Positions 3,225-24,305 of a stretch of DNA of 64,000 nucleotides are shown in pieces. This DNA is from an uncultured Bizionia sp. (GTDB taxonomy: Bacteria > Bacteroidota > Bacteroidia > Flavobacteriales > Flavobacteriaceae): positions 2,111 through 66,110 of the forward strand of contig CANMCF010000023.1 in assembly GCA_947496215.1 (NCBI GenBank). Reading direction: 5' to 3'. The notes under the pieces were generated by a model. It saw nothing but the letters and a program-made list of their open reading frames with translations, had not been told where the DNA came from and did not search any database. How positions within the stretch are numbered: the first letter of the stretch is position 1; each line of letters opens with the position of its first letter. The translations under genes were made by a program, and so were the position numbers.

Positions 3225-4037
3225 CTAATTTCTCAAAGCTTTGTTACTAATGGATTCCTTTAGTTCCAACAACTGGCTTTCCAATTCATGAAGCCTATCA
3301 TAGACATCCACAGGTTCTGGCATTTGTTTTGAGGCAAACATCGTGACGTACCACACTTCCATGATGTCCTCGATGTCTATGGTGTAGGTTGGATAGTTAC
3401 CATCCTTGTTGTCACTCTTTAGAATTAACTTTCCTCGTTTGTCTATTCTGTTTATTACACGTTTTAGGACAATCCCATCATTCTTGCTTACAATGACGTA
3501 GACACGTCCGTCTTTTACTTCATTCAAGTCCTCTACATATTTTCCAAAAACCAAATCACCATCGAAAAAAGTACGCACCATGGAGTTACCTTGTACCTCG
3601 AAGCACCTGAAGGTCCCATTGGTAAGTTGTGGCATATGGAAAGATGGCAATGTTTCTATGTATTCCGTGTCTCCATACCCATCCAAGTATCCCGCACGAG
3701 CTTTAATTGGAACATAAACGACGTTTTCTTCGTTGTCTTGGTTGACGGCTATAACTTGAGGTACTCCAGAATATGTTTGAATTTGAGGCACTTCATCTTT
3801 TAACATTATAGTACTTCTTCCAAAAAGGTAATCCGGATTTATATCGAATTCTTCAATTATTGCAGATAGGACATCATATCCAGGTTTTGTTTTTTTTCGA
3901 GAACCATCAGATTGAGGTCTTCCATTGACTATGCTATCTATGGTAGTTCCCGTAACTCCTATGCGTTTTGAAAAAGAAAAGTTGTTTAGTTGGAAGTGAT
4001 TAATAATCGCTTTTATTTTATCATCTATGGTCTCCAT
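3225..4037 (-). CDS. HTH + peptidase S24 (LexA / phage CI-like) transcriptional repressor
   Basis: N-terminal HTH-like region (FSFSKRIGVTGTTIDSIVNG). C-terminal S24 fold signature with the GNSM serine motif (VQGNSMVRTF) and a downstream Lys (IVLKRV). Divergent from the large gene at 4387. Confidence 0.8.
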   Translation of the reverse strand: METIDDKIKAIINHFQLNNFSFSKRIGVTGTTIDSIVNGRPQSDGSRKKTKPGYDVLSAIIEEFDINPDYLFGRSTIMLKDEVPQIQTYSGVPQVIAVNQDNEENVVYVPIKARAGYLDGYGDTEYIETLPSFHMPQLTNGTFRCFEVQGNSMVRTFFDGDLVFGKYVEDLNEVKDGRVYVIVSKNDGIVLKRVINRIDKRGKLILKSDNKDGNYPTYTIDIEDIMEVWYVTMFASKQMPEPVDVYDRLHELESQLLELKESISNKALRN

Positions 4038-4066
4038 AAGCTATTTCAAATTAAATTAAACTTTTT

Positions 4067-4110
4067 ACAGAATACACTGTAAAATGTTTGTTTTTATTTG
4101 TAAAATGTTT
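4067..4110 (+). promoter_or_regulatory. Bacteroidota-type promoter (-33 TTTG at 4077-4080, -7 TATATTTG at 4101-4108) overlapped by two direct TGTAAAATGTTT boxes (4069-4080, 4089-4100)
   Basis: The sequence ctgtaaaatgtttgtttttatttgtaaaatgttttatatttgta matches the TTTG/TAnnTTTG consensus with about 20 nt spacing. The same architecture recurs at 13090-13152 and 22420-22463. Confidence 0.6.
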
Positions 4111-4386
4111 TATATTTGTACTGCAATAATGTTGCTAATATACAAAATTATCTATAAATCAAACATTTGTATAAAAACAGAGCAACAATTTCTTGATTTT
4201 ACATAAAAGACGTCTTGAAAAATCAAAACGACGGATAACTATTCAAACATTTTTTTGAATAGGGTGGAGAGTTATGCCTTTCATTATTAAGGCTTTGTAT
4301 TGAGGTTTACCTGTTGGAAAAGCGAAATGAAGACAGTTCTTGATAACAAGAACCCAATAATGATTATAAATTTTAAAACAATTAGA
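4111..4386 (+). promoter_or_regulatory. Long conserved 5' leader of large gene 1, containing a 9-bp-stem hairpin (4239-4247/4254-4262) and a 9-codon uORF MPFIIKALY (4274-4303)
   Basis: About 235 nt (from 4158) are nearly identical to 13187-13418, with roughly 14 differences by eye. The coding sequence that follows is clearly more diverged than that. Confidence 0.5.
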
Positions 4387-7300
4387 ATGAGAAAAGAGAT
4401 TAAACAAAACCTATTTAGATTCGTAACCTTACGTAATCCACAATTAATAGACAAAAAGGAAAGCCATCCGGGATTTGTGTATCATCCAGACGATAATTAT
4501 GAAAGAAGTGTTTATTCTGAGGTGCTTTCAGAGACAGATGAAGCAAGTAAAATGGCCTTGTCAAAAGCAGTGTCAGATGAATTTGTTCCTTTGAAGGGAA
4601 GAAAAGGCGTAAAAGACTATAGGCAAACCATATATGACTTTTCATTATGGTTGATGCGTAACAAAAACCATTTGTCGTACAAAAGCATAAAATCAAATGC
4701 ACAAGGAGTAGATAATTTGACGACAGAAGCACTTTTGGTTATCTGGGACAATTTGATATATCAAACGATAAACAAGAAATCCGTCTATGTGAGGGAAGCT
4801 TTGATACAAGTCTTGATAGCAGATCAATTCTTTAAGGCGTTCAAAGATTTCTCTGCTGGTTTATCTGGAGATATCTTGTTCACGGAAGATCAAGAAAAGG
4901 AGTTTGTTCGTAGAGCCAATGCGAGTGTTGTAATTTCGAAGGCATTATTGGCTGCAACGACGATAAAACCAACAACAAAGGAAAAAAGGGTAAGCATATC
5001 TAAAATCAAAGAGCTTGAAAATGCTACTGATGTTGCGTTGGCAAAAGAGCGAGTACAAAGATACCAAACCTTGGTTGAAGAGTTGAAAAGTGTCGAGACC
5101 AAGTATAAAAATGAGAATCAAGTCAAGTATGAAAAAGCTTTGACTGACTATAACCAGACGATTGAAAACCTTTTGAAAAAGGTGGAACCGGTAATTGTAG
5201 AGGAAACCAATACCAAAGGAGAGGTTTCAAAAATAGAAACATATCCAAATTTGGATTTGCCAAAATTTGTTTACAACAAGGAAGCGGCAATCAACAAGGA
5301 ATATTTGACGAACAAGATTTCCAAAGACTCATTGGCTATTTTGGAGGAACAAGGATTGGATGTCCATAAGGATTTTTCAGAAGTGTTTGATGCAGTAAAA
5401 ACAAAAGTCAAAGATGAAAATGAAATTATTCTTGGCAAGGCGCCTAAACAAATAAAAACGCTCAAAGTAGGAGGGGCAAGCGTTACCGTCAATCCGAGTT
5501 TGGAATCCGAACCATATGACTATAACATTAGTCCATTGCATTCTATAAATCCAGGAGGGTTGAGAAATATCAACATGTTGATATTCAATTACGTTCAAGA
5601 TTCTCAAATAACGGATGTATCCTATAAGATAACTTTTAACAATGGTACGGAAAAAACAAGTACGGATTTCACCATATTCAATTCAGGAACAACGCAAATT
5701 TTAAGATTGTTTCCAAACTTGATTGCTTTTCCATTTGGGACGCTGTCATACACATTAGAAGGGGAGATCACATTGGAAGATCAAACAAAGCTTAGCTTTA
5801 GTAAGCTTGTAAAAATGAAAAGCAGACACAACTTTGGAATGTTTGATTTGCAAAATGATGATTCTGGTGACAACCCTGTGGATTCTCAGGTATTTGGAGT
5901 TACCAACCTGGGAATAGCCGACTTTAGACGTGTGGAACAAGAAGTATGCTGTTATGTGCCTGGGGAAGTGTCCCATATAGAAAACATCATGGCGCGAGAA
6001 TACAAAGAACGTGCAACGAGAAGTTTGAACAGCATAGAGACCACCAGTGAAGAAACCTCGGAGCGTGAAACGGAAAAACTTACAGATACCACAACAACGG
6101 AGCGTAATGAAATGCAAAGTGAAGTATCTTCTGTAATCAATGAAGACAAATCCAAGAACTATGGGGCAAACGCAAGTGTAAGTGGCAAGTTTGGTACCAC
6201 AAGTTTCAATGCAGGAGCACATTTCGATGCATCATCATCCAGTTCCACATCAAACTCCAACAGCCAAGCACAGACGTATGCACAGGAAGTCACGGAAAGA
6301 GCCATGGAGCGTATTGTGCAAAAGGTGAGCAGCAAGCGTACATCCCGTATATTGAAGGAGTTTGAAGAAAACAACAAGCATGGTTTCGATAACACGAAGG
6401 GAGACAAACATATTACAGGAGTATATCGTTGGGTGGATAAAATCTACAAGAATAAATTGATAAACTATGGTAAACGTCTAATGTATGAATTTGCTATTCC
6501 AGAACCTGCAAGATTCTTAAAAGATGCATTGATTAAAAAAGCAGACGATGGGCAATTGGATTCAGGTATCATTTTACCGGTAGAGCCAGTAAAACCAAGT
6601 ACGATAGGGTTGAATTCAGCGACCAACATAAATGAAAGCAGCTACCAAGGATTTGCATCCAAATATGCTGCCGAAGTTAGTGCTCCAGTAGATCAATACT
6701 TGAAAATTGGTCGCGCTTTCTCCAAAGACGATCAGAGTTATGATGCCAAAGGATATGCATTTAACGACATTGATGTTCCAGAAGGATATTATGCAACGTC
6801 GGGAACAGTTAATTGGGCTGTGATCCAGAAGAACAATTCGCATAAGTTCATGTCCATTGGGTTGGGAGATTCAAGACATTCTGTAATTGGAGGATCTGGA
6901 AGTACGTCTTTTTATAATTTTTCTGACATCTATAAAAAGAATATCCCATTCTCATTCAACACTTGGTACATTCACTCAGGGCATTTCAATGTTACGATAA
7001 ACTGTACAAGAAGCAATGAAGAGTACAAGCAATGGCAAAATGAAACATATACTGCCATCATGGATGCCTACAACGATCGTTTGCGTGAGTATAACGAAGC
7101 TATGGCCGCAAACAACATTGTTCCAGACAACGATGAGAAAGTTTCTTTCAATCCGGCCTTCAATAGAAGTCTTGAGAAAAAAGAGTTGAAACGCATTGCC
7201 ATCGAGTTGTTGATAGATCAAGACAGAGTATCCAAAAACGATTATGTGGACGATTCTTTGGTCAAGGTTAAAAACGATGAAGCCTTCCATGCACATGCGG

Positions 7301-8337
7301 CTACGGTGAAGTTCTTTGAGCAAGCCTTCGATTGGGACATCATGGCTTATGTCTTATATCCGTATTTCTATGCGAAGCAATCGGATTGGAAGACATTGTT
7401 CCAAGAAACAGACGTTGCAGATCCTATTTTCCAAGCCTTTTTACAGTCGGGTATGGCAAGAACGGTTGTTCCTGTGCGTCCAGGGTTCGAAGATGCGGTA
7501 AACTGGTACATGTCCACGGGCGAAATCTGGAATGGGGAAGGATTGATCACAGATCAAGACGATGATCTTTACGTGTCCATCTCAGAAGAAATGGAAACTG
7601 TGGAAGGAGTAGTGGAAGAGACTTGGGAAACACGTTTGCCTACGAGTTTGACGGTGATACAAGCTGGGTCCATAGGTTTGAATGTGGAAGGCCTACCATG
7701 CAATGTGGATTGTGATGACTTTGCGTTGTTCGATTCTGATGGAAACCCAGTATTGGATTCAAACGGAAACCCATTGACAAACAACCCTATAGAGCAAACC
7801 GATGTTTTGATTGGAGGAGCCTCTGGGGTAGGAGGAACTGGTACAGAGGAACTTAAAATGGTCGAGTTTACCTTTGTGGACAACACGGGAAGCAATTTTG
7901 CCAATATAGGGGAGTATGATGCAGAAGGAGCCTTTCCTTTGGTTTTCAAATGCATGGATCAAAAAATAGAGATTCAAAGAGAAGCCCAATGGCATGCCTC
8001 AAACAGCGTTGGTGTAATCTATCAGAAATTGGCGGAACAAGTGTCTTTGATTTCAGGGATTCAGGCAAATCAAGTCTTTAGTAAGAAAGGAGATCCATTG
8101 GGAATTAGATTCAAGGTAGAGATAGCCAAAATTCCAACATTCACATTTGAGAAATTCGTTGAAAAAGGAGCGTTCTCCGAACCAAACCACGATTTATTGA
8201 AGCTAATCATCAATGATACTGCTGTAAAGGTGATATCTCCTACCGTGTATTTGGATAGAATCTTCGATAAAGCAAATACAGGGCTCAAGGAAGCAGAATT
8301 AAACATCAATTTACCTATCGATAGGTTTTTGGTATGA
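4387..8337 (+). CDS. Giant protein 1 of an unrecognised family (about 1316 aa). No signal peptide. Mosaic of conserved and variable modules.
   Basis: Uninterrupted ORF 4300-8337; the track start is a TTG, and ATG 4387 (MRKEIKQNLFRFVTLRNPQLI) aligns with the paralog. Paralog of 13419-17081. I recognise no known domain signature. Confidence 0.85.
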   Translation: MRKEIKQNLFRFVTLRNPQLIDKKESHPGFVYHPDDNYERSVYSEVLSETDEASKMALSKAVSDEFVPLKGRKGVKDYRQTIYDFSLWLMRNKNHLSYKSIKSNAQGVDNLTTEALLVIWDNLIYQTINKKSVYVREALIQVLIADQFFKAFKDFSAGLSGDILFTEDQEKEFVRRANASVVISKALLAATTIKPTTKEKRVSISKIKELENATDVALAKERVQRYQTLVEELKSVETKYKNENQVKYEKALTDYNQTIENLLKKVEPVIVEETNTKGEVSKIETYPNLDLPKFVYNKEAAINKEYLTNKISKDSLAILEEQGLDVHKDFSEVFDAVKTKVKDENEIILGKAPKQIKTLKVGGASVTVNPSLESEPYDYNISPLHSINPGGLRNINMLIFNYVQDSQITDVSYKITFNNGTEKTSTDFTIFNSGTTQILRLFPNLIAFPFGTLSYTLEGEITLEDQTKLSFSKLVKMKSRHNFGMFDLQNDDSGDNPVDSQVFGVTNLGIADFRRVEQEVCCYVPGEVSHIENIMAREYKERATRSLNSIETTSEETSERETEKLTDTTTTERNEMQSEVSSVINEDKSKNYGANASVSGKFGTTSFNAGAHFDASSSSSTSNSNSQAQTYAQEVTERAMERIVQKVSSKRTSRILKEFEENNKHGFDNTKGDKHITGVYRWVDKIYKNKLINYGKRLMYEFAIPEPARFLKDALIKKADDGQLDSGIILPVEPVKPSTIGLNSATNINESSYQGFASKYAAEVSAPVDQYLKIGRAFSKDDQSYDAKGYAFNDIDVPEGYYATSGTVNWAVIQKNNSHKFMSIGLGDSRHSVIGGSGSTSFYNFSDIYKKNIPFSFNTWYIHSGHFNVTINCTRSNEEYKQWQNETYTAIMDAYNDRLREYNEAMAANNIVPDNDEKVSFNPAFNRSLEKKELKRIAIELLIDQDRVSKNDYVDDSLVKVKNDEAFHAHAATVKFFEQAFDWDIMAYVLYPYFYAKQSDWKTLFQETDVADPIFQAFLQSGMARTVVPVRPGFEDAVNWYMSTGEIWNGEGLITDQDDDLYVSISEEMETVEGVVEETWETRLPTSLTVIQAGSIGLNVEGLPCNVDCDDFALFDSDGNPVLDSNGNPLTNNPIEQTDVLIGGASGVGGTGTEELKMVEFTFVDNTGSNFANIGEYDAEGAFPLVFKCMDQKIEIQREAQWHASNSVGVIYQKLAEQVSLISGIQANQVFSKKGDPLGIRFKVEIAKIPTFTFEKFVEKGAFSEPNHDLLKLIINDTAVKVISPTVYLDRIFDKANTGLKEAELNINLPIDRFLV

Positions 8338-8681
8338 GTCAAGTAAAATTGGAAATGATATGGCAACACGAGAAAGTGTTGCCATACATTCTCAATGATC
8401 TAAAAAAGCAAGTAGAGACCATCACAACAGTACATGGTATTGTGTTGTATGGTAGTCGTGCAAAAACGAACATTGAGAATTGGGACACTTTAAAAGGCAA
8501 GGATTGGGATGTTGTGGTGGTAACAGATTTTCCAATAGTCAATACTCAAATATGGACTCAGGATGAAAACTACCATATAGACTTGAGGGTCATTGATAAA
8601 AAAAGAGCGGATGAAATACTGGGGTTTTTGAAACAGACCATAGAATTATATCCTGTGAATCAATTGAAACAGCCTTTTTAA
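8334..8681 (+). CDS. Small Pol-beta-superfamily (minimal) nucleotidyltransferase-like protein
   Basis: VLYGSRAKTN...KDWDVVVVTD fits the G-S...DxD minimal NTase pattern. Its start overlaps the giant gene stop (ATGA), which suggests translational coupling. Confidence 0.45.
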   Translation: MSQVKLEMIWQHEKVLPYILNDLKKQVETITTVHGIVLYGSRAKTNIENWDTLKGKDWDVVVVTDFPIVNTQIWTQDENYHIDLRVIDKKRADEILGFLKQTIELYPVNQLKQPF

Positions 8682-8718: not shown

Positions 8719-11088
8719 ATGAACAATACAATATACAATGAAACGATTAGAGATATGACACATGTGAGCAAGTTGGCGTCTCAAAAGTTTTATAATAGGA
8801 CGGCTCCGGAAATCTCACAAATCTACTTCCCACAATCTGACCAAAAAAAAATCAAGAACATCGTGGTTGAAACAGATGTGGATACAAGTGGCAAGCTGTT
8901 GGAATATGTGACGAAACGGGTGTATTTCTATGACAAGAACAACAACAACAAGCTGGATGATGATGAACAGTTGGCCTACAATGCTTACATATACACGTCA
9001 ACAGATGCCATAAAGTTGAAAGAGACATATGAAGTGGCCGAAGCAGGGGAAGACGATGTCTTGATTTTTGTAGAAGACAACCAAGGAGACGTAAGTTCCC
9101 AGTTTTGTAGAGCTAGAGTTGGAAAAAATGTTTTGAGCAATTTAAAGAATGCAGGCCATTTATACAACAACAGGAAACTTTTGGCAAGAATAAACGAACA
9201 TGCCCCTATCGATGAAGCCGTTTTAAATGAATTGTTGAAAAAGGGAAAGATAGAGAATACCACGTTGAAGGTGTTGGAATTCTTGTTTGCAGTTCCGGAT
9301 TATCTAGGCCCTTTCAGTCCAAATACTTTTGTAATGAAAGGCTTGGGAACTATATGTGAGGAGATTGCAAAGTTTATAAACAAGGCAAAAGTAGACGATT
9401 ACAGGTGGAACCCCCAAGCTAAAAAACGCAATGAGGATGGGACAGAAGATGAAACACATGAGTTTGCTCCTTTCCTGTTTCCCTTTGTGACAGAAGCATT
9501 GGATAGCATTGATGATTCCAAGGTAAATGGATATATGCAAAAATCCATTGCAGAATTGAAAAGTTTATACGCTTCTCAAGATCAAGCCATTCAAAATTAC
9601 GTTAAGAATGTGGATGTCGGCCGCTTGGGCAATGTGCCAATTTATTTTCCCTATGGAGGTTACGTGAACGTGGAAGTGGATTTGGTTCCGGATTCCATAG
9701 AACTGTTTTTGTTTAACAAGTACTTGCAAGTGAAAAAAGTGATAGATGCGGTATTCGAGAAATTGGAAGGGTTTGATTTCACGGACCTCATCAAAAAAGG
9801 GATTACCACGGCCAATGCATTCCTATGTGGTGTTTGGAATGGTTTGGTAGATGCCATTTCCGGTATTTTCGTGCTTTTGGAAATGGTGTTCAAAGCCGCC
9901 GCTGCAATGAATGATTTCAGGCAAAACTTCAGTACGGAATTTCCAATATTGTTGGAGTATATCGATAACTTTACGGAAGCATTGAGCAGTATAGATTTCA
10001 AAGAGCTCTATACACATCTAAAAACAAAGTTGTCAGATGCATCCATAGGAAGCATATCTTTGGAAACGATTGCTTATTTTAGTGGAGCGTTCATTGGGTT
10101 TGTAATAAGTTTGGTTATTGAAATAGTCGTAGGGATTCTATTTACAGGTGGTACGTTGAGTGTGGCAGCTGTAATAGAAAAGCTAGCGGCCATATTTTCA
10201 GGATTGCTCAGAGCAGGAGCCAAGGTTTTGAAAAAGACTTTTGATTTTTCAAAAAAATTGGTGGTCAACACCTTCAAGGGGTTCAAAAAGTTGTTGCAAG
10301 GAATGATAACTCTTTTGCGTAAGGGAACAGCTGGTTTCAAAGTAATGATAGATGACATATTCAAGGCATTCGGAATTTATGCCAAGGAAGCATTGAGTAA
10401 TGCAAATTCAGGATTGATACCGTTGTTGACAAAAGCAGAATTAAACCTCTACAAGAATTTGGCAAAAGCTTTTTTCAAGCCATTCAAAAAGTTGCTTTTA
10501 AGATATGCGGATAATGCAAGGGTGTTAAGGAGGTGGAGAAAGTTGAACCCTATGGATAGTCTATTAAAAGTTGATATAGACGAACTTTTAAGACTTAGGT
10601 CTTTAAATAAAAGAGGTTACAACAAAAATACTGCAACTATGAAAGCTCAAGTAGAGGTAAATGGAGAAGTTCTTGAGTTGGAATATAAAGCTTTGGCTGG
10701 TAATAAGACTAGTGGAGAAGGATTGCTTGGTAATGTGAATAAAGACTATATAGCTAAGCAATTAGGTATTAGTATAGAAGATTTAATGAAACATTTTGAT
10801 GATATTGCTGATGATGATTTGATAAGAAGGTTTCATGATAGTGAGCATAAGATCTTTAGTGCTTTCGATGATGATGTGTTGAAGCTTCAAACCCGTTATG
10901 GTAAAGAAAGTGTAAATGTTAAGAGTGTAAACTTTAAAACACTTTACGAACCATGTATATCTTGTAAACGTCAAATGATCATTCGTCAAGAAATGCACGA
11001 ATTTTCACTTAAAGTTCAGGCAATATTAATAAAAGGTAAGAATTACGCAAAAAATAATTCAGACTTACAAAGTTTAATGTTAAAATAA
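8719..11088 (+). CDS. Membrane-module protein with polymorphic C-terminal toxin domain (deaminase-like)
   Basis: Central hydrophobic helices (GVWNGLVDAISGIFVLLEMVFKAAAA; IAYFSGAFIGFVISLVIEIVVGILFTGG) are shared with 17278-19125. The C-terminus has FHDSEHKIF followed about 35 aa later by LYEPCISCKRQM, resembling the deaminase HxE...PCxxC layout. An immunity gene starts 6 nt downstream. Confidence 0.6.
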   Translation: MNNTIYNETIRDMTHVSKLASQKFYNRTAPEISQIYFPQSDQKKIKNIVVETDVDTSGKLLEYVTKRVYFYDKNNNNKLDDDEQLAYNAYIYTSTDAIKLKETYEVAEAGEDDVLIFVEDNQGDVSSQFCRARVGKNVLSNLKNAGHLYNNRKLLARINEHAPIDEAVLNELLKKGKIENTTLKVLEFLFAVPDYLGPFSPNTFVMKGLGTICEEIAKFINKAKVDDYRWNPQAKKRNEDGTEDETHEFAPFLFPFVTEALDSIDDSKVNGYMQKSIAELKSLYASQDQAIQNYVKNVDVGRLGNVPIYFPYGGYVNVEVDLVPDSIELFLFNKYLQVKKVIDAVFEKLEGFDFTDLIKKGITTANAFLCGVWNGLVDAISGIFVLLEMVFKAAAAMNDFRQNFSTEFPILLEYIDNFTEALSSIDFKELYTHLKTKLSDASIGSISLETIAYFSGAFIGFVISLVIEIVVGILFTGGTLSVAAVIEKLAAIFSGLLRAGAKVLKKTFDFSKKLVVNTFKGFKKLLQGMITLLRKGTAGFKVMIDDIFKAFGIYAKEALSNANSGLIPLLTKAELNLYKNLAKAFFKPFKKLLLRYADNARVLRRWRKLNPMDSLLKVDIDELLRLRSLNKRGYNKNTATMKAQVEVNGEVLELEYKALAGNKTSGEGLLGNVNKDYIAKQLGISIEDLMKHFDDIADDDLIRRFHDSEHKIFSAFDDDVLKLQTRYGKESVNVKSVNFKTLYEPCISCKRQMIIRQEMHEFSLKVQAILIKGKNYAKNNSDLQSLMLK

Positions 11089-11094
11089 TAAAAA

Positions 11095-11574
11095 ATGGAA
11101 ATACAATTTTTACAAAAATTAAAACAGAATCCTAAGATTGGTGTAAGAGAAATAAAAGGAGTTTTGGAATCAGAGATCTTTGAGGTAGAGAATAAACTTA
11201 ATATTAGTTTTCCAAAATCGTATAAAGAGTTTTTATTTTTAGCAGGAGAGTCTTGTGGAGCATTACAAATATTGGATACTACAGATTTGAAAACTATTTC
11301 TTCAGATTGGCATAAAGAAATACAAAAAGAAGAATTAGAATCTACAAGGACTGAATTTGATGGACCTTTTTGGTTGTTTGCTGAAAGCAATGGATGTGAG
11401 GTTTTTCATTTCTTTTATTTGGAAGATGGTATTGATGATCCAGTGGTATTTTCTGTAGACTATGATATATATGATGATAATAAACGTATAATTAAGACCA
11501 GTGATAAAAAATTCAGCGTATTTATTGAAAATAAGATAAAATCGGCTATAAGAATAGATAAACAAGGATATTAA
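11095..11574 (+). CDS. SMI1/KNR4 (SUKH-1) family immunity protein
   Basis: N-terminal pattern ESEIFEVENKLNISFPKSYKEFLFLAGESCG is typical of SMI1_KNR4. It lies immediately after the toxin gene. Confidence 0.8.
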   Translation: MEIQFLQKLKQNPKIGVREIKGVLESEIFEVENKLNISFPKSYKEFLFLAGESCGALQILDTTDLKTISSDWHKEIQKEELESTRTEFDGPFWLFAESNGCEVFHFFYLEDGIDDPVVFSVDYDIYDDNKRIIKTSDKKFSVFIENKIKSAIRIDKQGY

Positions 11575-11627: not shown

Positions 11628-11876
11628 ATGATTATGAAAAAAACATTTATTTGTACTGGATATATTGAAACGAGTTTGGATAGTATCATCTCAATTTTAA
11701 AAACTTTTTTAGATGCATCCAATATTACAGATAGATATGCTGTAGATATAGAAAGAGAAGTTAAATATAGAGATGAAAAAATAGACATTTACTCATACAA
11801 GTACTCAGAAAAAGGGAGTTTATTTCAAGTAGAACTCAACGGAACGAAGAAGCTCAAAGCTTTATTGATACAATAA
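11628..11876 (+). CDS. Small hypothetical protein, possibly the 5' part of a frameshifted gene extending to 11986
   Basis: 82-aa ORF. A different frame stays open from about 11770 to 11986 and reads protein-like (EEAQSFIDTITEKLREDSIVHQFEWNEVDENEDQVGEEFEIRFPED) but has no start codon. Confidence 0.35.
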   Translation: MIMKKTFICTGYIETSLDSIISILKTFLDASNITDRYAVDIEREVKYRDEKIDIYSYKYSEKGSLFQVELNGTKKLKALLIQ

Positions 11877-12038
11877 CTGAAAAATTAAGAGAGGATTCAA
11901 TAGTTCATCAATTCGAATGGAATGAGGTTGATGAAAATGAGGATCAAGTAGGAGAAGAGTTTGAAATTCGATTTCCAGAAGATTAATTTCCAGGTTATTA
12001 AGTAATAGTTATGCTTTGCTAATAAAACATAAAGCCTA

Positions 12039-12075
12039 AAAAAGCTCTTACATCTTATAGTAAGAGCTTTTTTAA
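12039..12075 (+). terminator. Rho-independent terminator
   Basis: aaaaagctcttac / 8-nt loop / gtaagagcttttttt: a GC-containing 11-13 bp stem followed by a T-run. Confidence 0.65.
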
Positions 12076-12404: not shown

Positions 12405-12493
12405 TTGTAATGTCAATTTATTTTTTCAGAGATAAAATCATATAGAATCTGTAATATGGTTAAGCGTTATCGTATGATGACTTGTTGGATACA

Positions 12494-13040: not shown

Positions 13041-13089
13041 TTGAATGTATATGTATATATCATATGTTTGATTGTGTTAAAACCATTAT

Positions 13090-17277: not shown

Positions 17278-19125
17278 ATGAGTAATATAAATGAGAACAA
17301 TCCATTGGAGGGAATCGATTTCCCGGATGGTGTTTCAAATGCCTCTAACCTCTTTGCTGCAAATGCACCGATTTCGAATTCCATATTTCAAACTTGTACT
17401 ACAGATAATTTTTTGAATTACTTCTTTCAAGGAGCAGAGCGTAAGGATGTCGTGGAAAAAATGGGAGCTTTTGGAGGCAAGATAGTAGAAGAAACTTATG
17501 TTGGAGGAGGAATCGAAAAAGTATATAGGACAAACCGATATGTCAAAAAAGATGGAATTAGGCAAGAAGCGGGAACAGTGGTTTTGATTATTGGTACAGA
17601 TGGAGCAGAAATACTGAAGACCCATAATGGCTTGGTGCCAAAAAAAGGGGAACAAATTATCCTTCTGGAAAAAAATGACAATGATTTCTCTGGAGCCATA
17701 ATGCGTTTTAAACAGGATACAAGTATAAACATCAACAAATCCGCAGTTTCATTGACCAGTTTCATCAATAAACGCTATGAGATCACATTGGATCAATTTA
17801 AAGACATTGTCAATAGGGTAGACAACACCTCTGCTCTGGAAAGTTTGGTGATCTCGATACTTGACAATACCAAAACAGTTAGAACCGTGGCAACGGTAGG
17901 TTTGGCATTGGCAGGTAAAATGATAGACTCAGCCATAAAGGGGTTTGATGAATTTGTGGATGGTTCGCTAAAGATCGATCCTAGTTTTTGGAACCCGGAC
18001 CATAAGGATTTCAAACAGAAGGTAAATGTAACATCAGAACAAATAAAGGAGTTAACAGCCTCTTTGGATGTTATTGGTGGAAAAGTGGATGGATTGAGTT
18101 TTAAAAGCGTGGTTGCTGCCGGAGGAGCTGCATCTGTGGCAGCAGGACCGTTTGCACTTGCATTTCTGGCTCCCGGAGCAGTGGCATACAAATTATATTC
18201 CGAAGAAATAGAATTGGTGTTCGATAAGATGAAGGCTCAAATAAAAAGCGCCCTAAAGACTCTTAAGGAATTTTTGAACAATACGTTGGAAAGCCTGATA
18301 AAAGGCATAAATACGACAATAAATGTCGTATTGGCTTTTATTTCCGGAGTTTGGTCAGGTTTGGTGGACTTTGTTGCAGACATCATAAGGCTCTTCCTGT
18401 TCTTGGTGAAATTGGCTGTGGCCGGTGCAGGAAAAGTAAATGAGGTGATTGGTGTTAAAGAAGGGGATTCCAAAGCATTTGTAAAGAACTTTGGGTTGTA
18501 CTATAACCTCATCTTGGAAAACATAGATAATACGTTGCAAGGTTTGGGAGCAGTAAACTGGTTGGAATTCTTCAAGGAATCCTTTTTAAAGTTCGAACTG
18601 TTGAAAATACGTATCCTAGCCAAGATCTTCGATAAGGCCGGGAAGACTCTGGACGGATTGAATTATGCTGAGTGGGCCTATTACATAGCCTATGCCATAC
18701 TATTGATTGCAGATATCATATTGTCCTTCTTCTTTCCTGGTCTGTTGGCAACCAAAATAGCCAAATTAGGCAAGGCAGGAAAGGTGTTGGCGAAAATCAT
18801 TGTAGCTGTGCAGGATGCTATGGCACTTGTATTTAAAATAGGGTTTAAGACAGTTGCCTTTGGTGTGAAAAGCATTATAGGTGTTTGGTCCAGCATTGTA
18901 GGTATTTTAAGAAAGGGAACTAAAAAACTCTTGGAGTTTTTGGATGTAGTGTTCGCTAATCTGGCAAAGGTGTTCGATGAGGTTATTACTGGGGTGTCTA
19001 AAGCGGCAGAAAAGGCTTACAAGTCTTTGTTTAATGTAACTGAACGAAGTTTGATAGATAAGTTGGGCTTAAAGGTAAGTAAATACGAGGATGACATATT
19101 AACACTTTGTCCGATAGGCAAATAA
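17278..19125 (+). CDS. Membrane-module protein, paralog of the central part of 8719-11088
   Basis: LAFISGVWSGLVDFVADIIRLFLFLVKLAVAGAG and GILRKGTKKLLEFLDVVF align with GVWNGLVDAISGIFVLLEMVF and LLRKGTAGFKVMIDDIF of the 789-aa protein. The N- and C-termini are unrelated. Confidence 0.7.
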   Translation: MSNINENNPLEGIDFPDGVSNASNLFAANAPISNSIFQTCTTDNFLNYFFQGAERKDVVEKMGAFGGKIVEETYVGGGIEKVYRTNRYVKKDGIRQEAGTVVLIIGTDGAEILKTHNGLVPKKGEQIILLEKNDNDFSGAIMRFKQDTSININKSAVSLTSFINKRYEITLDQFKDIVNRVDNTSALESLVISILDNTKTVRTVATVGLALAGKMIDSAIKGFDEFVDGSLKIDPSFWNPDHKDFKQKVNVTSEQIKELTASLDVIGGKVDGLSFKSVVAAGGAASVAAGPFALAFLAPGAVAYKLYSEEIELVFDKMKAQIKSALKTLKEFLNNTLESLIKGINTTINVVLAFISGVWSGLVDFVADIIRLFLFLVKLAVAGAGKVNEVIGVKEGDSKAFVKNFGLYYNLILENIDNTLQGLGAVNWLEFFKESFLKFELLKIRILAKIFDKAGKTLDGLNYAEWAYYIAYAILLIADIILSFFFPGLLATKIAKLGKAGKVLAKIIVAVQDAMALVFKIGFKTVAFGVKSIIGVWSSIVGILRKGTKKLLEFLDVVFANLAKVFDEVITGVSKAAEKAYKSLFNVTERSLIDKLGLKVSKYEDDILTLCPIGK

Positions 19126-19138: not shown

Positions 19139-19960
19139 ATGAAACAGACAATAAAAAAACTGTGCTTGTATTGGCAAGCCAAAAAAGTAGAAGCCAAAGC
19201 AATTAAAAAAATTGTTGATTTACCAATGTTAAAAGTGGTATATAAAAAAGATACTAGTATAACATTGGGTTGTTTAACGACAGGAATGTCCAATAGCAAA
19301 CCGACTTTGTCATGGAATAGTGTGGAACTATTGGTCAAAAACAAAACTGGAGATGTCAGGGATTTTTTTAAAAAGGTTTATAAGGAATCCAAGGCCAAAA
19401 ATATCTCTCCACAAAAGTATTTGGATGAGTTGGCTGAATTAACTGAAAAAGCTAATTTACGTAGGATAGCTTTAGGGAAATGGGCTAATAAGTTTGATTC
19501 TAGTTTTTTCAATCATCTGAGCGGAGATGTTGGGACTGAGAAAATAACAATTTTTTTTAAAGAATTAGTTTATGTTGCCCCTAAAGGGCAAGGAGGACAT
19601 TGGCTTAATAAATTTTTAAAAGTAGATCAGGTTACTTTTCCTCCAGGAATTAGCAAGGTTAGTCAAATAGCAGATGATGTTCCTTTTAAAGCAAAAGTTA
19701 CCATTAAATCTGCAAAAGGTAAAGTATTTCCAAAAACAGCAGAGTCTTCTATGTTTCCTAAAAATTGGAGTAAAACAAGAATACAGGAAGAAATTGCTTG
19801 GGTTTATGAAAATACTGTAGTTAAAAATATTAATAGAAAAATAAAAGGACCAAACGATTTATTTAATAAGTTTGAAGGAGATACAACAACTGGGTTTAAA
19901 GTATTGTTAGAGGTTGATGACTTAGGAAAAATTGTTAATGCATATCCAATTATTATTTAA
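19139..19960 (+). CDS. Stand-alone toxin with C-terminal bacterial EndoU-like RNase domain
   Basis: GQGGHW ... SSMFPKNWSKTRIQEEIAWVYEN ... GKIVNAYPI matches my recollection of the EndoU_bacteria pattern (GGH ... FFP..WS ... I.taYP). Confidence 0.6.
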   Translation: MKQTIKKLCLYWQAKKVEAKAIKKIVDLPMLKVVYKKDTSITLGCLTTGMSNSKPTLSWNSVELLVKNKTGDVRDFFKKVYKESKAKNISPQKYLDELAELTEKANLRRIALGKWANKFDSSFFNHLSGDVGTEKITIFFKELVYVAPKGQGGHWLNKFLKVDQVTFPPGISKVSQIADDVPFKAKVTIKSAKGKVFPKTAESSMFPKNWSKTRIQEEIAWVYENTVVKNINRKIKGPNDLFNKFEGDTTTGFKVLLEVDDLGKIVNAYPIII

Positions 19961-19970
19961 AAAAACAAAA

Positions 19971-20327
19971 ATGAATTATAAGTTTTATAAAGAAGAAATA
20001 GACGGAATTATTACTTTAGGCGTAATGCCTGAAAAAAAAGAGTATAATATATTGTTTAGGTTTGGTAACTATGGTTGGACATCATTAAAGGCGCAGGAAA
20101 TAATAGATGGAGTTCAAGAAAGCAAAGAAAAACCTAAAGGAGAAGAATATGTTTGGGCAAACGAGGATGTTACATTGTATTCTAATGAAAATGGAATATT
20201 GTTGATTGATGACATCTCTCAAAGAGCAGGAGAAAAGAATCCTGAAAAATTGAATTTTGGCATTGGTACTGACGAGTTTATTGTATTTATGCAAGAGTTT
20301 AAGTTGTTCATTGAGGAGAATAGTTAA
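19971..20327 (+). CDS. Small cytoplasmic protein, candidate cognate immunity protein for the EndoU-like toxin
   Basis: 118-aa ORF (MNYKFYKEEIDG) starting 10 nt after the toxin stop. The track start at 19932 overlaps the toxin gene and is less likely. Confidence 0.5.
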   Translation: MNYKFYKEEIDGIITLGVMPEKKEYNILFRFGNYGWTSLKAQEIIDGVQESKEKPKGEEYVWANEDVTLYSNENGILLIDDISQRAGEKNPEKLNFGIGTDEFIVFMQEFKLFIEENS

Positions 20328-20416: not shown

Positions 20417-21655
20417 TTAGTTTCCGGCGATGTTGTTTGTGTCTTTCCTTGACGTTGCATGTCTGAAATCCGGAGCGTCTTTCAAATTTGGGTTTATGAA
20501 AAAGCGGGTTATTGAATCATCTGTTATATTGATGCCTTCATTGCTGTTGGCTACAAAGTGATTTTCACAATGACTTATTTTTAAATCTTTCAATTTCAGA
20601 AACTCCTTAAGCTCTTTTTTTGGTAGTTGCCTAGCTATGATCAAGAAATCTCTAAAGCCGTAAGCGATGCTGTTTTCAAAAGTCAAATGACTATTTTCAC
20701 CTAGATGGATGGCTTCCTTGATCAAGCCTTGATCGTTATCCTCGACATTTACCAAAGTGATGTTGGTTGCTTTTACATTTGTCTTGTCTCCATTCGGGTT
20801 GAAATCTTCAAATTTTTTGTAGGTGTCTATCTCAAAAGCCCTGGATTTTCTATTGTCCGAAGAATAAGGATGTCTTATGGCAATGCTATTGCTTATGATC
20901 GATTGAGCACCTTTTGTGAAATCGAAGTCGTCATCGGTTGCCCTATACGAAATCAAGTTTTTCATTTTTACGTCACCTCCATAGAATTCGAAAGAGTCGT
21001 CGTTGGAGAAGCTTATCTGAATGTTTTCTATTGTCGTCTTGTTTCCCACACCGGCAAACGAAATTCCATTCAACTCTTTTTTCAAGCTTAGCTTTCTTCC
21101 ACAATACTCCACTCTCACGTATTTTAAGGTTCCAGACGAACTCTCGGGGTTATTTCCCCCATAGACTTTGAATTCTGGTTTTAAATCAAATCCTAGGACT
21201 CCCAGTCCGCCGTAGGCATTTACAGGAGCGTCACCCATGATTATGATTCCTCCCCAATCCCCTGGCCTTCTGGAATAGGTGTTTTTATTGGATGTAAATA
21301 CAATGGGGCTTACATCTGTGCCTTCGGCAATTATTTCGGATCCTTTCGTCACGACCAAGGTTCCACAGGACTTGTAGTCACCTCTAATGATCGTGCCTGG
21401 TTCTATTGTCAAAGTGGCATTGTTTGTGACATAGACAACGCCTTGCAATAAGTATGTGTGTCTACTGGATAGAGTAGTGTCTTCGGTTATGATGCCCGCC
21501 AAGGTCTTGTTTGTTTTTCTGTATTCTTGCTTCATGGGATTGAAATTGGTCCAATTTTCAAACCAATTCTCTTCACCAAAAATACCTGGGTTTACTTGTG
21601 AATGACTTAATACACAGCTTAAAACTACGCTAAATGCTAAAATGATCTTCTTCAT
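20417..21655 (-). CDS. Secreted hypothetical protein (signal peptide; possibly beta-helix-like)
   Basis: Signal peptide MKKIILAFSVVLSCVLSHSQ. Long ORF with no catalytic motif that I recognise. Confidence 0.6.
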   Translation of the reverse strand: MKKIILAFSVVLSCVLSHSQVNPGIFGEENWFENWTNFNPMKQEYRKTNKTLAGIITEDTTLSSRHTYLLQGVVYVTNNATLTIEPGTIIRGDYKSCGTLVVTKGSEIIAEGTDVSPIVFTSNKNTYSRRPGDWGGIIIMGDAPVNAYGGLGVLGFDLKPEFKVYGGNNPESSSGTLKYVRVEYCGRKLSLKKELNGISFAGVGNKTTIENIQISFSNDDSFEFYGGDVKMKNLISYRATDDDFDFTKGAQSIISNSIAIRHPYSSDNRKSRAFEIDTYKKFEDFNPNGDKTNVKATNITLVNVEDNDQGLIKEAIHLGENSHLTFENSIAYGFRDFLIIARQLPKKELKEFLKLKDLKISHCENHFVANSNEGINITDDSITRFFINPNLKDAPDFRHATSRKDTNNIAGN

Positions 21656-21871: not shown

Positions 21872-22372
21872 ATGTTATTGGCTCTAGATGTCCATTATAA
21901 AGAGAATTATGCGAAAAGCGTTGGAGTGATTTTCAATGCCACAGAGGGCACTTTGCAAGCTAGCCTCATAGAGATCATAGATGAGGTTGAGGATTATGTG
22001 TCTGGACAATTCTACAAACGCGAACTGCCATGTTTGTTGAAGGTTGTGGATAAGGTAAATTTGACGACTATTGATGCAATTGTCGTAGATGGTCATGTAT
22101 ATGTGGACAATGATTGCAATCTGGGGTTGGGCGGACACTTGTACAAGGCATTGGATGAACAAATACCAATTATTGGGGTTGCCAAACGCTCTTTTCATGA
22201 CACTGAGGCTGTTTCAAAGGAGGTCTTCAAAGGGAAAAGTAAGAATCCGCTTTATGTTTCTGCGATTGGCATGGATTTACAGGATGCCATAAGCATTATC
22301 TCTCAGCTTCATGGGGAGCATAGAATACCAACGATTCTCAAGGCGTTGGACGATATTACAAAAGAAGCATGA
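21872..22372 (+). CDS. nfi: Endonuclease V family protein
   Basis: Aligns by eye with E. coli Nfi: LDVHY vs ADVGF, YVSGQFYKRELPCLL vs YIPGFLSFREYPALL, VVDGH...IPIIGVAKRSF vs FVDGHG...VPTIGVAKKRL, and NPLYVS vs NPLFIA. Confidence 0.75.
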   Translation: MLLALDVHYKENYAKSVGVIFNATEGTLQASLIEIIDEVEDYVSGQFYKRELPCLLKVVDKVNLTTIDAIVVDGHVYVDNDCNLGLGGHLYKALDEQIPIIGVAKRSFHDTEAVSKEVFKGKSKNPLYVSAIGMDLQDAISIISQLHGEHRIPTILKALDDITKEA

Positions 22373-22419
22373 TTGCAAGATTCTGTCTTAAAACAAATTA
22401 CAAAAAACAATAAATTAAT

Positions 22420-22463
22420 CTGTAAAATGTTTGTTTATTTTCTGCAAAATGATTATATTTGTA
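22420..22463 (+). promoter_or_regulatory. Third copy of the promoter/operator (boxes tgtaaaatgttt 22421-22432 and tgcaaaatgatt 22443-22454; -7 TATATTTG at 22454-22461)
   Basis: ctgtaaaatgtttgtttattttctgcaaaatgattatatttgta has the same architecture as 4067-4110. The downstream leader is unrelated. Confidence 0.55.
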
Positions 22464-22623
22464 TTCGCTTTTCTAACAACGGTTTACCGAAGTTAAAATT
22501 AATTCGTGTTAAGTAGAAACCCAAAAACCTAGGCTTAATCTATATCTGATTAAGAAAAAACAAGCAATGGAAGTCTTTGGTCAGTGGTTTGGTCTACTTG
22601 AAGTTAAAAAATCAAACATATGT

Positions 22624-23061
22624 ATGAGTATAATTAATAAAGCGCTATCCGAGTATGGCGTTAAGGAAATTGTAGGCTCCAAAGACAACCTTAGAATCTT
22701 GAAGTATTTTGATGAAATAGGTTTCAATGGCTCAAAATTACATGACGAGACAGCTTGGTGTAGTGCTTTTGCAAATTGGGTTGCAAAAACCTCAGGTCAT
22801 GAGTATTCCAAGAAGTTGAATGCTAGAAGTTGGCTGGCTGTTGGAGACTCCACTAACAGACCCAAGGTGGGAGATGTAGTGGTACTTTGGCGAGAAAGCC
22901 CAAACAGCTGGAAAGGGCATGTTGGGTTCTTTGTCAAGGAGACCAAGAATTTCGTGTATGTCTTGGGAGGCAACCAACGTAATATGGTATGTATCAAGGC
23001 TTACCCAAAAAGTCGTGTGTTAGACTATAAAAAACTCAAAAAAAATAACAAATTAAAATAG
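22624..23061 (+). CDS. TIGR02594-type NlpC/P60-CHAP-like peptidoglycan hydrolase (endolysin-like)
   Basis: GVKEIVGSKDN..ILKYF...DETAWCSAFANWV...ARSW...GDVVVLWR...KGHVGFF...VLGGNQRNMV matches the TIGR02594 family pattern. Confidence 0.8.
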   Translation: MSIINKALSEYGVKEIVGSKDNLRILKYFDEIGFNGSKLHDETAWCSAFANWVAKTSGHEYSKKLNARSWLAVGDSTNRPKVGDVVVLWRESPNSWKGHVGFFVKETKNFVYVLGGNQRNMVCIKAYPKSRVLDYKKLKKNNKLK

Positions 23062-23068
23062 ATGAGAT

Positions 23069-23503
23069 ATGGACAGAGTAATCAAATTAATGTTTTGGTT
23101 GCTTACGCTCTTGTCTCCTGTTAATGGTGTTATGGTAACTATGGTTTTTTTAATTGTAGTCGATTTTATAACAGGATCGTATGCAGCTATCAAAAATCAC
23201 ATCCCTATTAGAAGTTCACGAATTGGACATACCATTTCTAAATTTTTTATTTATAACCTGGTTATTCTGGCTGCATTCTTTTTAGAGAAGCACATCGTGG
23301 ACGAAGTGCCTTTTTTAAAGATAATAGCAGGCTTTATAGCGATAACCGAAATAAAATCGGTTTTGGAGAACTTTAATAAAATTTATGGAGTAAATCCTTT
23401 TAAAGCTTTGGTCAACTTGATAAAGATGACACCTTTGAAGGATACGATAGAAACACTTACAGAAGATGAAGACGCTTCGAAAGAAGCTTCCAAGAAGGCG
23501 TAA
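23069..23503 (+). CDS. Phage_holin_4_1-type holin
   Basis: Multiple TM helices with VVDFITGSYAAIKNH...SSRIGHTISK...ITEIKSVLENFNKIYG, a pattern typical of this holin family. Confidence 0.75.
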   Translation: MDRVIKLMFWLLTLLSPVNGVMVTMVFLIVVDFITGSYAAIKNHIPIRSSRIGHTISKFFIYNLVILAAFFLEKHIVDEVPFLKIIAGFIAITEIKSVLENFNKIYGVNPFKALVNLIKMTPLKDTIETLTEDEDASKEASKKA

Positions 23504-23625
23504 AAAACTAAAACCAAACCTTTCAAAAGCAAGAAATCCTTCCTAAGAAGCTTAGGAAGGAGGCTTTTGATTGTTTAAACAATGAGATTCCTCTGAGATG
23601 GGGATTGAATAAAAAACTTTTTTCG

Positions 23626-24228
23626 ATGATACAATTTTCAATAAAAACAGAAAGATTGCTCTTGTTGATCATACTGGCATTGGTAATCTGCAATTTACTT
23701 TTAAAACAGTGTCGTGGTGGGGAACCCATTGAAAAACCTGTGGTGACCATTAAAAGAGATACGGTTTGGCAAACTAAGGTAGACACGTTCAAGTTGCAAA
23801 CGGTGAAATATGAAACAGTTTATGTAAAAAAGGATGATGTCTCGGACATCGTTGAAGATGCAACCAAAATAGTTGACCTGTCCCTTTATGATAAAGCAAG
23901 GATTTACAAAGACACTCTGAGTAACGATGACATAGATATATATAGTTATAATTTACTCGATGGAAATTTACTGGATGGCCAATTGTCCTATAAATTGAAA
24001 GTGCCTCGGGAAATAACCGTTACAAAGACGATAGAGCACCCAAAGAGCTTCAGGAGTGGATTATATGTGTTTAGTGAGGTTGGTGGCAACGTGAGTACTT
24101 TAGACAACCTTAGTTTGGGTTTGCAATACAATAGAAAAGGGAATTGGTTTGCGAGCTATAGATTGAATTTTAATAGCTTGAGACAGCCAACACACAATGT
24201 AGGCATAGGTGTACGGTTGTTCAAGTAG
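23626..24228 (+). CDS. N-terminally membrane-anchored hypothetical protein (third gene of the lysis cassette; spanin-like role possible)
   Basis: TM anchor LLLLIILALVICNLLL followed by a beta-rich region. Preceded by the hairpin 23537-23561 (tccttcctaag/cttaggaagga). The function is an inference from position only. Confidence 0.45.
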   Translation: MIQFSIKTERLLLLIILALVICNLLLKQCRGGEPIEKPVVTIKRDTVWQTKVDTFKLQTVKYETVYVKKDDVSDIVEDATKIVDLSLYDKARIYKDTLSNDDIDIYSYNLLDGNLLDGQLSYKLKVPREITVTKTIEHPKSFRSGLYVFSEVGGNVSTLDNLSLGLQYNRKGNWFASYRLNFNSLRQPTHNVGIGVRLFK

Positions 24229-24271
24229 GTCTTCTTTGGAAGAATCCCGTGAACATTTCATAGTTAATAAT

Positions 24272-24305
24272 AAAAAGCCTCATCTTGAAGATGAGGCTTT
24301 TTATT
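24272..24305. terminator. Bidirectional terminator
   Basis: aaaaagcctcatcttgaagatgaggcttttt palindrome located between convergent genes. Confidence 0.75.

Follow-up and report, generated by a model that had tools for sequence, protein, structure and literature searches.

Within a 64,000-nucleotide (nt) stretch of contig CANMCF010000023.1 from an uncultured Bizionia sp. (the window, in which all coordinates below are given), we describe a locus of two toxin/immunity units, each led by a gene for a giant protein, and a third unit of lysis genes, with a common operator in all three. On the strength of sequence comparison and of analogy with known systems, we regard it as moderately probable that this locus is a damage-induced, lysis-released, bacteriocin-like polymorphic toxin system of the chromosome. 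Its core appears to consist of two genes, one for a giant leaderless protein and one for a partner in which a short conserved peptide at the N-terminus is joined to a hydrophobic helical module of glycine-zipper-like character and to an exchangeable toxin at the C-terminus, the toxin being either fused to the partner or supplied by the gene that follows; cognate and orphan immunity genes come next. In Bizionia, as in many marine Flavobacteriaceae, the core seems to be wired by TGTAAAATGTT-type operators to an S24 repressor and to a phage-derived cassette encoding a hydrolase, a holin, and a protein of 207 amino acids (aa). Gene content, paralogy, the shared operator, linkage across genera, and the polymorphism of toxins and immunity genes are all directly observed in the sequences compared. 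We built the gene map from translations of open reading frames (ORFs) together with Pfam, NCBIfam, and PHROG scans of the window proteins; it agreed with a first-pass annotation of the same DNA, whose sequence-level statements were all confirmed on checking. The principal genes are as follows (E, E-value).

3225-4037, minus strand: helix-turn-helix (HTH)-S24 repressor (CI/LexA-like), 270 aa, divergent from G1; Peptidase_S24 E 5e-10, HTH_19 E 6e-4 (weak)
4387-8337, plus strand: giant G1, 1316 aa, uncharacterised family; ATG 4387 is the conserved start, and the mechanical ORF runs from TTG 4300
8719-11088, plus strand: partner toxin 1, 789 aa, with an N-terminal domain, hydrophobic helices at aa ~368-490, and a C-terminal deaminase-like domain
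11095-11574, plus strand: SUKH immunity protein, 159 aa; SMI1_KNR4 E 9e-9
11628-11876 and 12099-12404, plus strand: two small ORFs, candidate orphan immunity genes, no family match
12482-12976, plus strand: second SUKH immunity protein, 164 aa; SMI1_KNR4 E 3e-10
13419-17081, plus strand: giant G2, 1220 aa, paralogue of G1
17278-19125, plus strand: partner 2, 615 aa, a membrane module without a toxin domain
19139-19960, plus strand: EndoU-family toxin, 273 aa, a separate gene; EndoU_bacteria E 6e-11, above the Pfam cut-off
19932-20327, plus strand: small ORF 3' of the EndoU gene, matching no family; its position alone makes it a candidate immunity gene
22567-23061, plus strand: TIGR02594/CHAP peptidoglycan hydrolase, 164 aa; TIGR02594 E 3e-32, CHAP E 4e-8, PHROG 1259 E 4e-30
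23069-23503, plus strand: holin, 144 aa; Phage_holin_4_1 E 3e-11
23605-24228, plus strand: 207-aa protein with an N-terminal transmembrane helix, a beta-rich C-terminus, and an aromatic last residue, no family match

Linkage among these genes was assessed in a comparison set of 85 Flavobacteriales giant loci (81 non-redundant), which were searched with the window proteins. A partner gene of 450-900 aa lies directly after the giant gene in 74 of the 85 loci, and the last 300 residues of the partners (n=73) match 11 polymorphic-toxin Pfam families: Tox-MPTase4 (8), WHH (6), EndoU (4), Toxin-deaminase (4), YwqJ-deaminase (3), and Colicin-DNase (3), with Col-Pyo DNase, ADP-ribosyltransferases, Gln_amidase, and LHH among the remainder. 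The two ORFs that follow the partner (125 ORFs) include SMI1_KNR4 proteins (21), SUKH-3 proteins (6), Imm22, and Imm35, together with orphan WHH and colicin-DNase fragments. Variable toxin C-termini with SUKH or Imm genes downstream are what marks a polymorphic toxin locus. The linkage of giant, partner, toxin, and immunity gene, which the first-pass annotation had proposed from the Bizionia sequence, is thus real and recurrent, and the two SUKH immunity genes that it had named were both recovered.

The two window partners are 23% identical, have a GVWxGLVD segment in common, and belong to one family, which accounts for 39 of the 74 partners and is related to a second family through the hydrophobic module (hhalign probability 98.9%). 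The hydrophobic segment contains GxxxG spacings, and a glycine zipper is known to be required for a type VI secretion system (T6SS) DNase to cross the target-cell membrane (PMC10240207). In two Olleya strains the partner bodies are unrelated but carry the same N-terminal ~20 residues, MSNTFQFAERxGFEPPFEF (13663-13725 in locus L001 and 13635-13697 in L007), and this peptide is a candidate signal by which each partner would dock to its cognate giant. No similarity to partner 1 is seen at the N-terminus of the EndoU protein. A word-based search returned only 4 homologues of the 615-aa partner, so that no useful alignment-based model of it could be made, and partners from other phyla have no sequence similarity to the flavobacterial ones. 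In loci L021-L023 and L026, from Kordia and relatives, the gene that follows the giant encodes a 440-500-aa protein that starts LKSYFExGDFPTxxQFxDLIDS, a motif that also occurs N-terminally in phage tail-fibre-like proteins, and that has no similarity to the other partner families.

The second line of evidence is the promoter region of the three units, which has the following features.

4057-4120, plus strand: promoter/operator P1, with sites at 4059-4069 (minus), 4078-4088 (plus), and 4099-4109 (plus)
4087-4090 and 4111-4118, plus strand: Bacteroidetes-type boxes of P1, -33 TTTG and -7 TAtaTTTG
13089-13152, plus strand: promoter/operator P2, with sites at 13091-13101 (minus) and 13131-13141 (plus)
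22395-22566, plus strand: promoter/operator P3 and conserved leader, with an exact site at 22421-22431, degenerate sites on both sides, and -7 box TATATTTG

A repeat search of the window recovered a 44-nt element at 4077-4120, 13109-13152 (75% identity), and 22420-22463 (77%), so the common element of about 44 bp that had been claimed for the three units is indeed present. Exact copies of TGTAAAATGTT occur in the 64-kb window at 4078, 4099, 13091 (minus strand), 13131, and 22421 only, that is, at the three units; the remaining matches have one mismatch each and are solitary. In this layout an inverted TGTAAAATGTT-like site comes first, direct copies stand ~20 and ~41 nt downstream of it, and the farther of these overlaps the -33 TTTG / -7 TAnnTTTG promoter, which was assigned by the published Bacteroidetes consensus. 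Olleya, Psychroserpens, Winogradskyella, Kordia, Tenacibaculum, and Pseudotenacibaculum have the same layout 5' of giant genes as well as of CHAP genes. Across the 85 related loci, TGTAAAATGTT-like sites reach a density of 5.85/kb in the 420 nt 5' of giant and CHAP genes compared to 1.12/kb elsewhere, which places the shared element beyond chance, and of the 37 regions 5' of CHAP genes, 36 contain two or more sites. In Kordia the S24 gene adjoins the lysis cassette, and the giant gene, ~5 kb away, still has the operator, which argues for a real common regulon. Co-regulation of giant and lysis genes, as first suggested from the window, is therefore supported by a three-site operator layout that is conserved 5' of both in six genera.

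The likely regulator is the product of the divergent HTH-S24 gene, whose identification in the first pass also held up (PHROG 4, "transcriptional repressor", E 2e-22, in addition to Peptidase_S24). Reading its translation, we found an Ala-Gly cleavage site (KARAGY), a serine motif (GNSM), and a lysine motif (LKR), so that all features of an S24 autocleaving repressor of the LexA/CI type (N-terminal HTH, C-terminal S24 domain, Ala-Gly site, Ser, and Lys) are present. Where enough upstream sequence was available, the gene is adjacent and divergent to the giant in 42 of 77 loci. We considered whether the protein could be the non-canonical LexA of the host: the Bacteroidetes protein of that kind likewise has a CI-like HTH, an S24 peptidase domain, an Ala-Gly site, and a Ser/Lys dyad, and comes from the same phylum; it binds the palindromes GGA-N5-TCC or CTAA-N5-TTAG 5' of repair genes (PMC8565304). 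The sites described here differ in being TGTAAAATGTT repeats that occur in the window only at the three units, and neither palindrome was seen complete when the three promoters were read, no pattern search having been run. Because the published motifs differ from the TGTAAAATGTT sites, we rejected this candidate; the S24 protein is most readily explained as a dedicated CI-like regulator and not the host SOS repressor, with both operator binding and cleavage predicted.

The hydrolase and holin of the third unit, which had been assigned correctly from the start, are encoded together outside any prophage: the flanking genes are housekeeping genes, and the same cassette occupies the same site in other genera. 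The 207-aa protein co-occurs with CHAP and holin genes in many loci and is a candidate outer-membrane disruptor or spanin analogue. A CHAP and a holin gene lie inside the locus in 33 of 63 loci, and 32 of the 33 lysis-bearing loci also have the S24 gene; among the 81 loci overall, both are present in 32, S24 alone in 19, lysis genes alone in 1, and neither in 29. S24 and lysis genes form an accessory module whose two parts go together, a correction to the first-pass annotation; about one third of the giant loci are without both. These same counts bear on an alternative in which the three units are independent members of a damage regulon, the S24-lysis pair is a domesticated prophage remnant or autolysis module, and the toxins are exported by some other route. 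That S24 and lysis cassette travel together, that 29 giant loci have neither, and that the Kordia S24 gene adjoins the lysis genes and not the giant speak for this alternative. It accords less well with giant promoters that retain their operators even where the S24 gene is distant, with proteins that are leaderless and show no other secretion hallmark that we could find, or with lysis genes placed directly 3' of the toxin/immunity arrays in most S24-positive loci, and we regard it as quite unlikely.

For the lysis-released toxin system that we favor, we infer induction, release through lysis, killing, and the parts played by giant and partner from analogy with colicins, pyocins, and Tc toxin release. 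DNA damage would lead to RecA-stimulated self-cleavage of the S24 repressor, and both giant/toxin operons would be derepressed together with the lysis cassette. A subset of cells would then lyse and release complexes of giant and partner, of which the giant would use its two beta-sandwich domains, both hypervariable, to bind target cells and would then breach the envelope or perhaps supply a conduit, possibly as an oligomer that forms via a conserved amphipathic beta-hairpin. The membrane module of the partner would take the toxin domain into the target, and the immunity proteins would protect sister cells. The presence of a damage-type repressor, toxic effectors, and lysis genes could also be read as anti-phage defence by abortive infection, with the giant sensing infection or damage and toxins and lysis cassette killing the infected cell; the giant core is, in addition, widespread on plasmids beside effector-like genes such as a patatin phospholipase. 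We consider this highly unlikely, since interbacterial polymorphic toxins typically come with co-transcribed SUKH/Imm genes and orphan cassettes, which would render a suicide effector harmless, and since PADLOC gave no significant match.

The giants themselves belong to an undescribed family. G1 and G2, which proved to be paralogues of the predicted size, are 58% identical over residues 1-1146, with identity rising to 98% in aa 501-550 and 651-700 and falling to 6-26% in the two beta-sandwich regions, a divergence pattern that would be expected for swapped specificity domains. No N-terminal hydrophobic signal was apparent on reading either sequence, and NCBIfam returned no C-terminal domain (CTD) of the type IX secretion system (T9SS). 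Neither giant has a significant match in Pfam, NCBIfam, PHROG, or PADLOC, the sole match being to ZorA (E 0.007), and sequence searches of the PDB with G1 and with profiles A2 and A3 yielded nothing beyond a 100-residue match to a ULP protease (E 0.046), which we judged to be due to chance. The database homologues, including 118 close homologues of G1, are all annotated as "hypothetical protein", and we found no prior description of the family or of the locus arrangement in the literature searched. The first-pass description of an undescribed protein family therefore stands for these resources.

The core of the giant is not specific to Bacteroidota. A profile search returned at least 4189 clusters at 50% identity (E up to 1e-3), 2580 of them with E up to 1e-30, and the core of the giant, aa ~485-1065, is also encoded in Bacillota, Actinomycetota, Pseudomonadota, Cyanobacteriota, and a haloarchaeon. 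Core-encoding plasmids were found in Bacillus thuringiensis, Sinorhizobium/Ensifer (S. meliloti), Tsukamurella, Streptomyces, Cupriavidus, Aulosira, and the haloarchaeon Natronorubrum. We inspected plasmid records from B. thuringiensis, S. meliloti, Natronorubrum, Tsukamurella, Streptomyces, Aulosira, and Chryseobacterium (L086-L092), in whose core proteins no Pfam domain was detected; in the six non-flavobacterial records a core protein labelled "hypothetical" is followed by an unannotated partner ORF, with a patatin phospholipase in Natronorubrum. Motifs conserved across phyla are the N-terminal LFRFxxLRxxQ, GEVAHIENVL, HGxDNTxG..GVYRWVDK, FFEQAFEW, and ARVVVPVRPGFE; even the N-terminal LFRFxxLR motif is present in distant phyla and in the haloarchaeon.

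AlphaFold2 (AF2) models of the giant place, in order, an N-terminal helical domain, a 60-residue helix, a beta-sandwich, highly conserved very long strands predicted with low confidence, a second beta-sandwich, and a helical or alpha-beta C-terminal domain; the second beta-sandwich has a predicted local distance difference test (pLDDT) score >90 in the second model. Foldseek searches of PDB and BFVD with the model of residues 1-1150 returned only matches to single jelly-roll domains or matches of low template-modelling (TM) score, while the core model had a weak match to the iota-toxin Ib pore (9jsg; E 1.6e-4, probability 0.63, TM 0.10) and also to CDTb. An alternating hydrophobic/polar hairpin (aa 590-600 and 607-615), rich in Ala, Gly, Ser, and Asn, is found family-wide, and its composition, by analogy a lead at most, recalls the membrane hairpins of beta-pore-forming toxins.

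Two further readings of the giant turn on these data. In the first, it would be a producer-side or particle-forming component of phage descent, such as a minimal tailocin- or capsid-like assembly, from which a tape-measure-like partner is ejected. Both window partners do have weak matches to phage tape-measure PHROGs (partner 1 E 6.5e-6, partner 2 E 7.5e-6), limited to the hydrophobic region; the beta-sandwiches of the giant resemble viral jelly rolls and tail-fibre domains; and the regulator and lysis genes are of phage type. A tblastn search with G1 against 50,697 phage genomes gave no match, however, which argues against the giant as a phage structural protein; the locus and its surroundings contain no gene for a tube, sheath, baseplate, portal, or terminase; and the Foldseek matches, at TM ~0.1, cover only single beta-sandwich domains. 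Descent of the giant from a phage particle is thus, in our estimate, distinctly unlikely. The second reading extends the toxin-delivery role far beyond Bizionia: the giant would stand for a new class of machine, spread across phyla, for the delivery or translocation of toxins. Leaderless and released by lysis, such a carrier would oligomerise via its core of long strands and amphipathic hairpin into a beta-barrel conduit that functions like the B component of binary toxins, recognise targets with swappable beta-sandwiches, receive its partner by a docked short N-terminal peptide, and deliver polymorphic toxins into Gram-negative rivals, with the same two-gene core carrying other payloads in Bacillota, Actinomycetota, Pseudomonadota, Cyanobacteriota, and haloarchaea. 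We offer it as a speculative extension that is doubtful in this full form.

Several observations weigh against interpreting the Bizionia locus as a lysis-released toxin system. The release module is one of them: in 29 of the 81 giant loci, S24 and lysis cassette are both missing within 10 kb, so this cassette cannot be the means of release in every case. The core is found in other phyla and an archaeon beside partners without recognisable toxin or immunity genes, so that its original role may have been other than interbacterial toxin delivery. A third partner family (22 members) has a different body, which leaves at least two unrelated types of partner body. Concerning the toxins, the EndoU domain named in the first-pass annotation held (E 6e-11), and the C-terminus of partner 1 matches Toxin-deaminase only at E 1.2e-3 to 3e-4, under the Pfam cut-off, so that "deaminase-like" is a weak call. 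The structural models are of mediocre quality (pLDDT 68.6 and 68.5; predicted TM score, pTM, 0.43-0.47), the conserved central region of the giant lies below 50 pLDDT, where a second core model from a deeper alignment was no better, and the matches to binary-toxin pores reach a TM of only ~0.10. Of the first interpretation as a whole, the toxin/immunity linkage, the operator layout, and the undescribed giant survive; the island does not, the S24-lysis module is accessory, and the giant core reaches beyond Bacteroidota.

Regulation of the units appears to extend beyond the operators into their leaders.

4121-4386, plus strand: G1 leader, ~270 nt, with conserved hairpins
13153-13418, plus strand: G2 leader, with a hairpin at 13308-13325

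The upstream regions of G1 and G2 are alike over ~330 nt (77% identity in an 83-nt promoter block, 97% in a 77-nt leader block, and 87% in the last 293-nt block), so the two giants have a long leader as well as a promoter in common. Positions 4152-4228 of the G1 leader are 97% identical to the G2 leader, a conservation above that of coding DNA. A terminator scan found a terminator-like hairpin in the G1 leader at 4276-4293, followed by TTTGTATT, and a second hairpin lies at 4337-4354; both show compensatory changes across genera, the corresponding leader being at 9741-10000 in L001 and present in other loci. Three leader helices are 93.5% paired compared to 41-51% in slid controls, five pairs have changed on both sides, and the covariation score was reached by 0 of 500 shuffles, in a test that used a narrower alignment and hand-drawn helices. 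RNAalifold gave no structure on a 12-genus leader alignment, probably owing to poor alignment, and Rfam holds no family for the leaders. The leader of the giant genes may be an attenuator or a new cis-regulatory RNA. An invariant block within it, ATCAAACATTTGTA (4160-4172 and 13191-13203), resembles the operator half-site AACATTTTACA minus one base, and may serve as a fourth repressor site, located 3' of the transcription start, or else belong to the promoter of the divergent S24 gene.

Between Bizionia, Kordia, and Tenacibaculum the P3 promoter and its leader hardly vary, as judged from the leaders in the window (22464-22566), L001 (16476-16560), L002 (22100-22190), and Kordia L062 and L084, and the blocks of this leader are more strongly conserved than the operators themselves. 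These nearly invariant blocks are TATTCGCTTTTCTAACAA, directly after the -7 box, GTGTTAAGTAGAAAC, and TCTGGTTAAGAAA.

The remaining features of the locus and its surroundings concern its chromosomal setting.

8334-8681, plus strand: small nucleotidyltransferase-like ORF, 115 aa, overlapping the G1 stop (ATGA); Polbeta E 5e-3, weak
12037-12074: bidirectional terminator between the two small ORFs of unit 1
13002-13037, plus strand: strong intrinsic terminator at the end of unit 1, a 15-bp stem followed by a T run
20417-21655, minus strand: protein of 412 aa that has a signal peptide and matches no family; its gene is inserted between toxin locus 2 and the endonuclease V (EndoV)-like gene
21872-22372: short EndoV-like gene, 166 aa, directly 5' of the lysis-cassette promoter

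The 115-aa ORF, which could encode an MNT-type antitoxin or accessory factor, was found only in the Bizionia locus (L006) among the related loci searched, and the gene for the 412-aa protein was likewise seen only in Bizionia (L010). The EndoV-like gene occupies the same position, 5' of the lysis promoter, in at least 10 related loci. The window as a whole is 99% identical to a metagenome-assembled genome of a Bizionia sp. Housekeeping genes flank the locus, with OmpA-family, S41 peptidase, and rnpA genes on one side and M1 and S8 peptidases, an MBL-fold protein, and a TonB-dependent receptor on the other. Olleya sp. YS has, at the same rnpA/M1 peptidase site, a minimal single-copy version in the order S24, giant, 753-aa toxin (Gln_amidase), Imm35, CHAP, holin, and 200-aa protein, and an rnpA or M1-peptidase neighbourhood also surrounds loci in Psychroserpens, Winogradskyella, Lacinutrix, Kordia, and Flavobacterium. 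Inspection of the flanking genes revealed no integrase or phage genes at the edges, and low GC content is confined to the stretch of toxin C-terminus and immunity genes (0.31 vs 0.37-0.42 for the rest). Given that the site recurs in many genera and its edges have neither integrase nor phage genes, the locus is better described as a conserved chromosomal hotspot, apparently with turnover of its toxin/immunity tips and no obvious mobile island, and the "composite island" of the first-pass annotation was not borne out.

Compared to known systems, the locus combines familiar parts in an arrangement of its own. Polymorphic toxin systems, in the 2012 framework of Zhang, Aravind and co-workers, have a conserved N-terminal trafficking part, swappable C-terminal toxins, an immunity gene directly downstream (here SUKH, Imm22, Imm35), and orphan cassettes; the system described here differs in having an obligatory neighbouring giant of unknown family in place of a recognised trafficking module. 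Pfam and NCBIfam gave no match in giants or partners to components of type V or two-partner secretion (T5SS/TPS), PAAR/VgrG, LXG/WXG100, MafB-N, Rhs, MuF, PVC, signal peptides, or the T9SS CTD, and in the locus proteins at large they detected no hallmarks of T6SS, Rhs, contact-dependent inhibition, LXG, or MafB, in agreement with the first pass. Tc toxins are released by a holin/endolysin/spanin (type 10 secretion) cassette, for example in Yersinia entomophaga (PMC10847048), and offer a parallel in their very large leaderless toxin components beside a phage-less holin-hydrolase cassette and in the pairing of a carrier with a component that bears a hypervariable toxic C-terminus. Unlike Tc toxins, the giants and partners have no TcA, TcB, or TcC/Rhs domains (Rhs/YD, SpvB, or TcdB-type, by Pfam), and control of the lysis cassette would fall to an S24 repressor; since immunity genes are present, the targets should be bacteria and not insects.

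A further parallel lies in SOS-induced colicins and in pyocins of the S or tailocin type. These combine a damage-responsive repressor of S24 type (LexA; PrtR) with lysis genes for release, an immunity protein, killing by nuclease domains (of which the colicin/pyocin DNase kind is present in homologous loci), and receptor-binding parts that vary. In contrast to these, the operator is no LexA box, killing and carrier functions would here be split over two proteins, and the carrier has 1200-1300 aa and no colicin translocation or receptor domains. Binary AB toxin translocases (anthrax PA, iota Ib, CDTb) resemble the system in their large separate "B" protein beside an enzymatic component and in a conserved amphipathic Ser/Thr/Gly-rich beta-hairpin between long strands, with the weak Foldseek matches to Ib and CDTb; they differ in that the giant has no sequence similarity to them, no PA14 or Binary_toxB domains, and a TM of ~0.10. 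Likeness to phage tape measure proteins is marginal in sequence, with weak PHROG matches in the hydrophobic region of the partners, and is not borne out by gene context, no tail genes being found nearby. What appears to be new is a plan for a damage-induced, lysis-released bacteriocin or polymorphic toxin that is built on an undescribed and very widespread carrier family.

If this interpretation is correct, the locus would represent a route of toxin delivery without an envelope-spanning secretion apparatus, via altruistic lysis under a damage switch, and would provide a first functional handle on a large "dark" family that spans several bacterial phyla and archaea. With its conserved operators and structured leaders it makes a compact model of regulation in Bacteroidota, in which SOS-type control was described only recently, and as a bacteriocin-like system of marine Flavobacteriaceae, among them the fish pathogens of the genus Tenacibaculum, it lends itself to testing.

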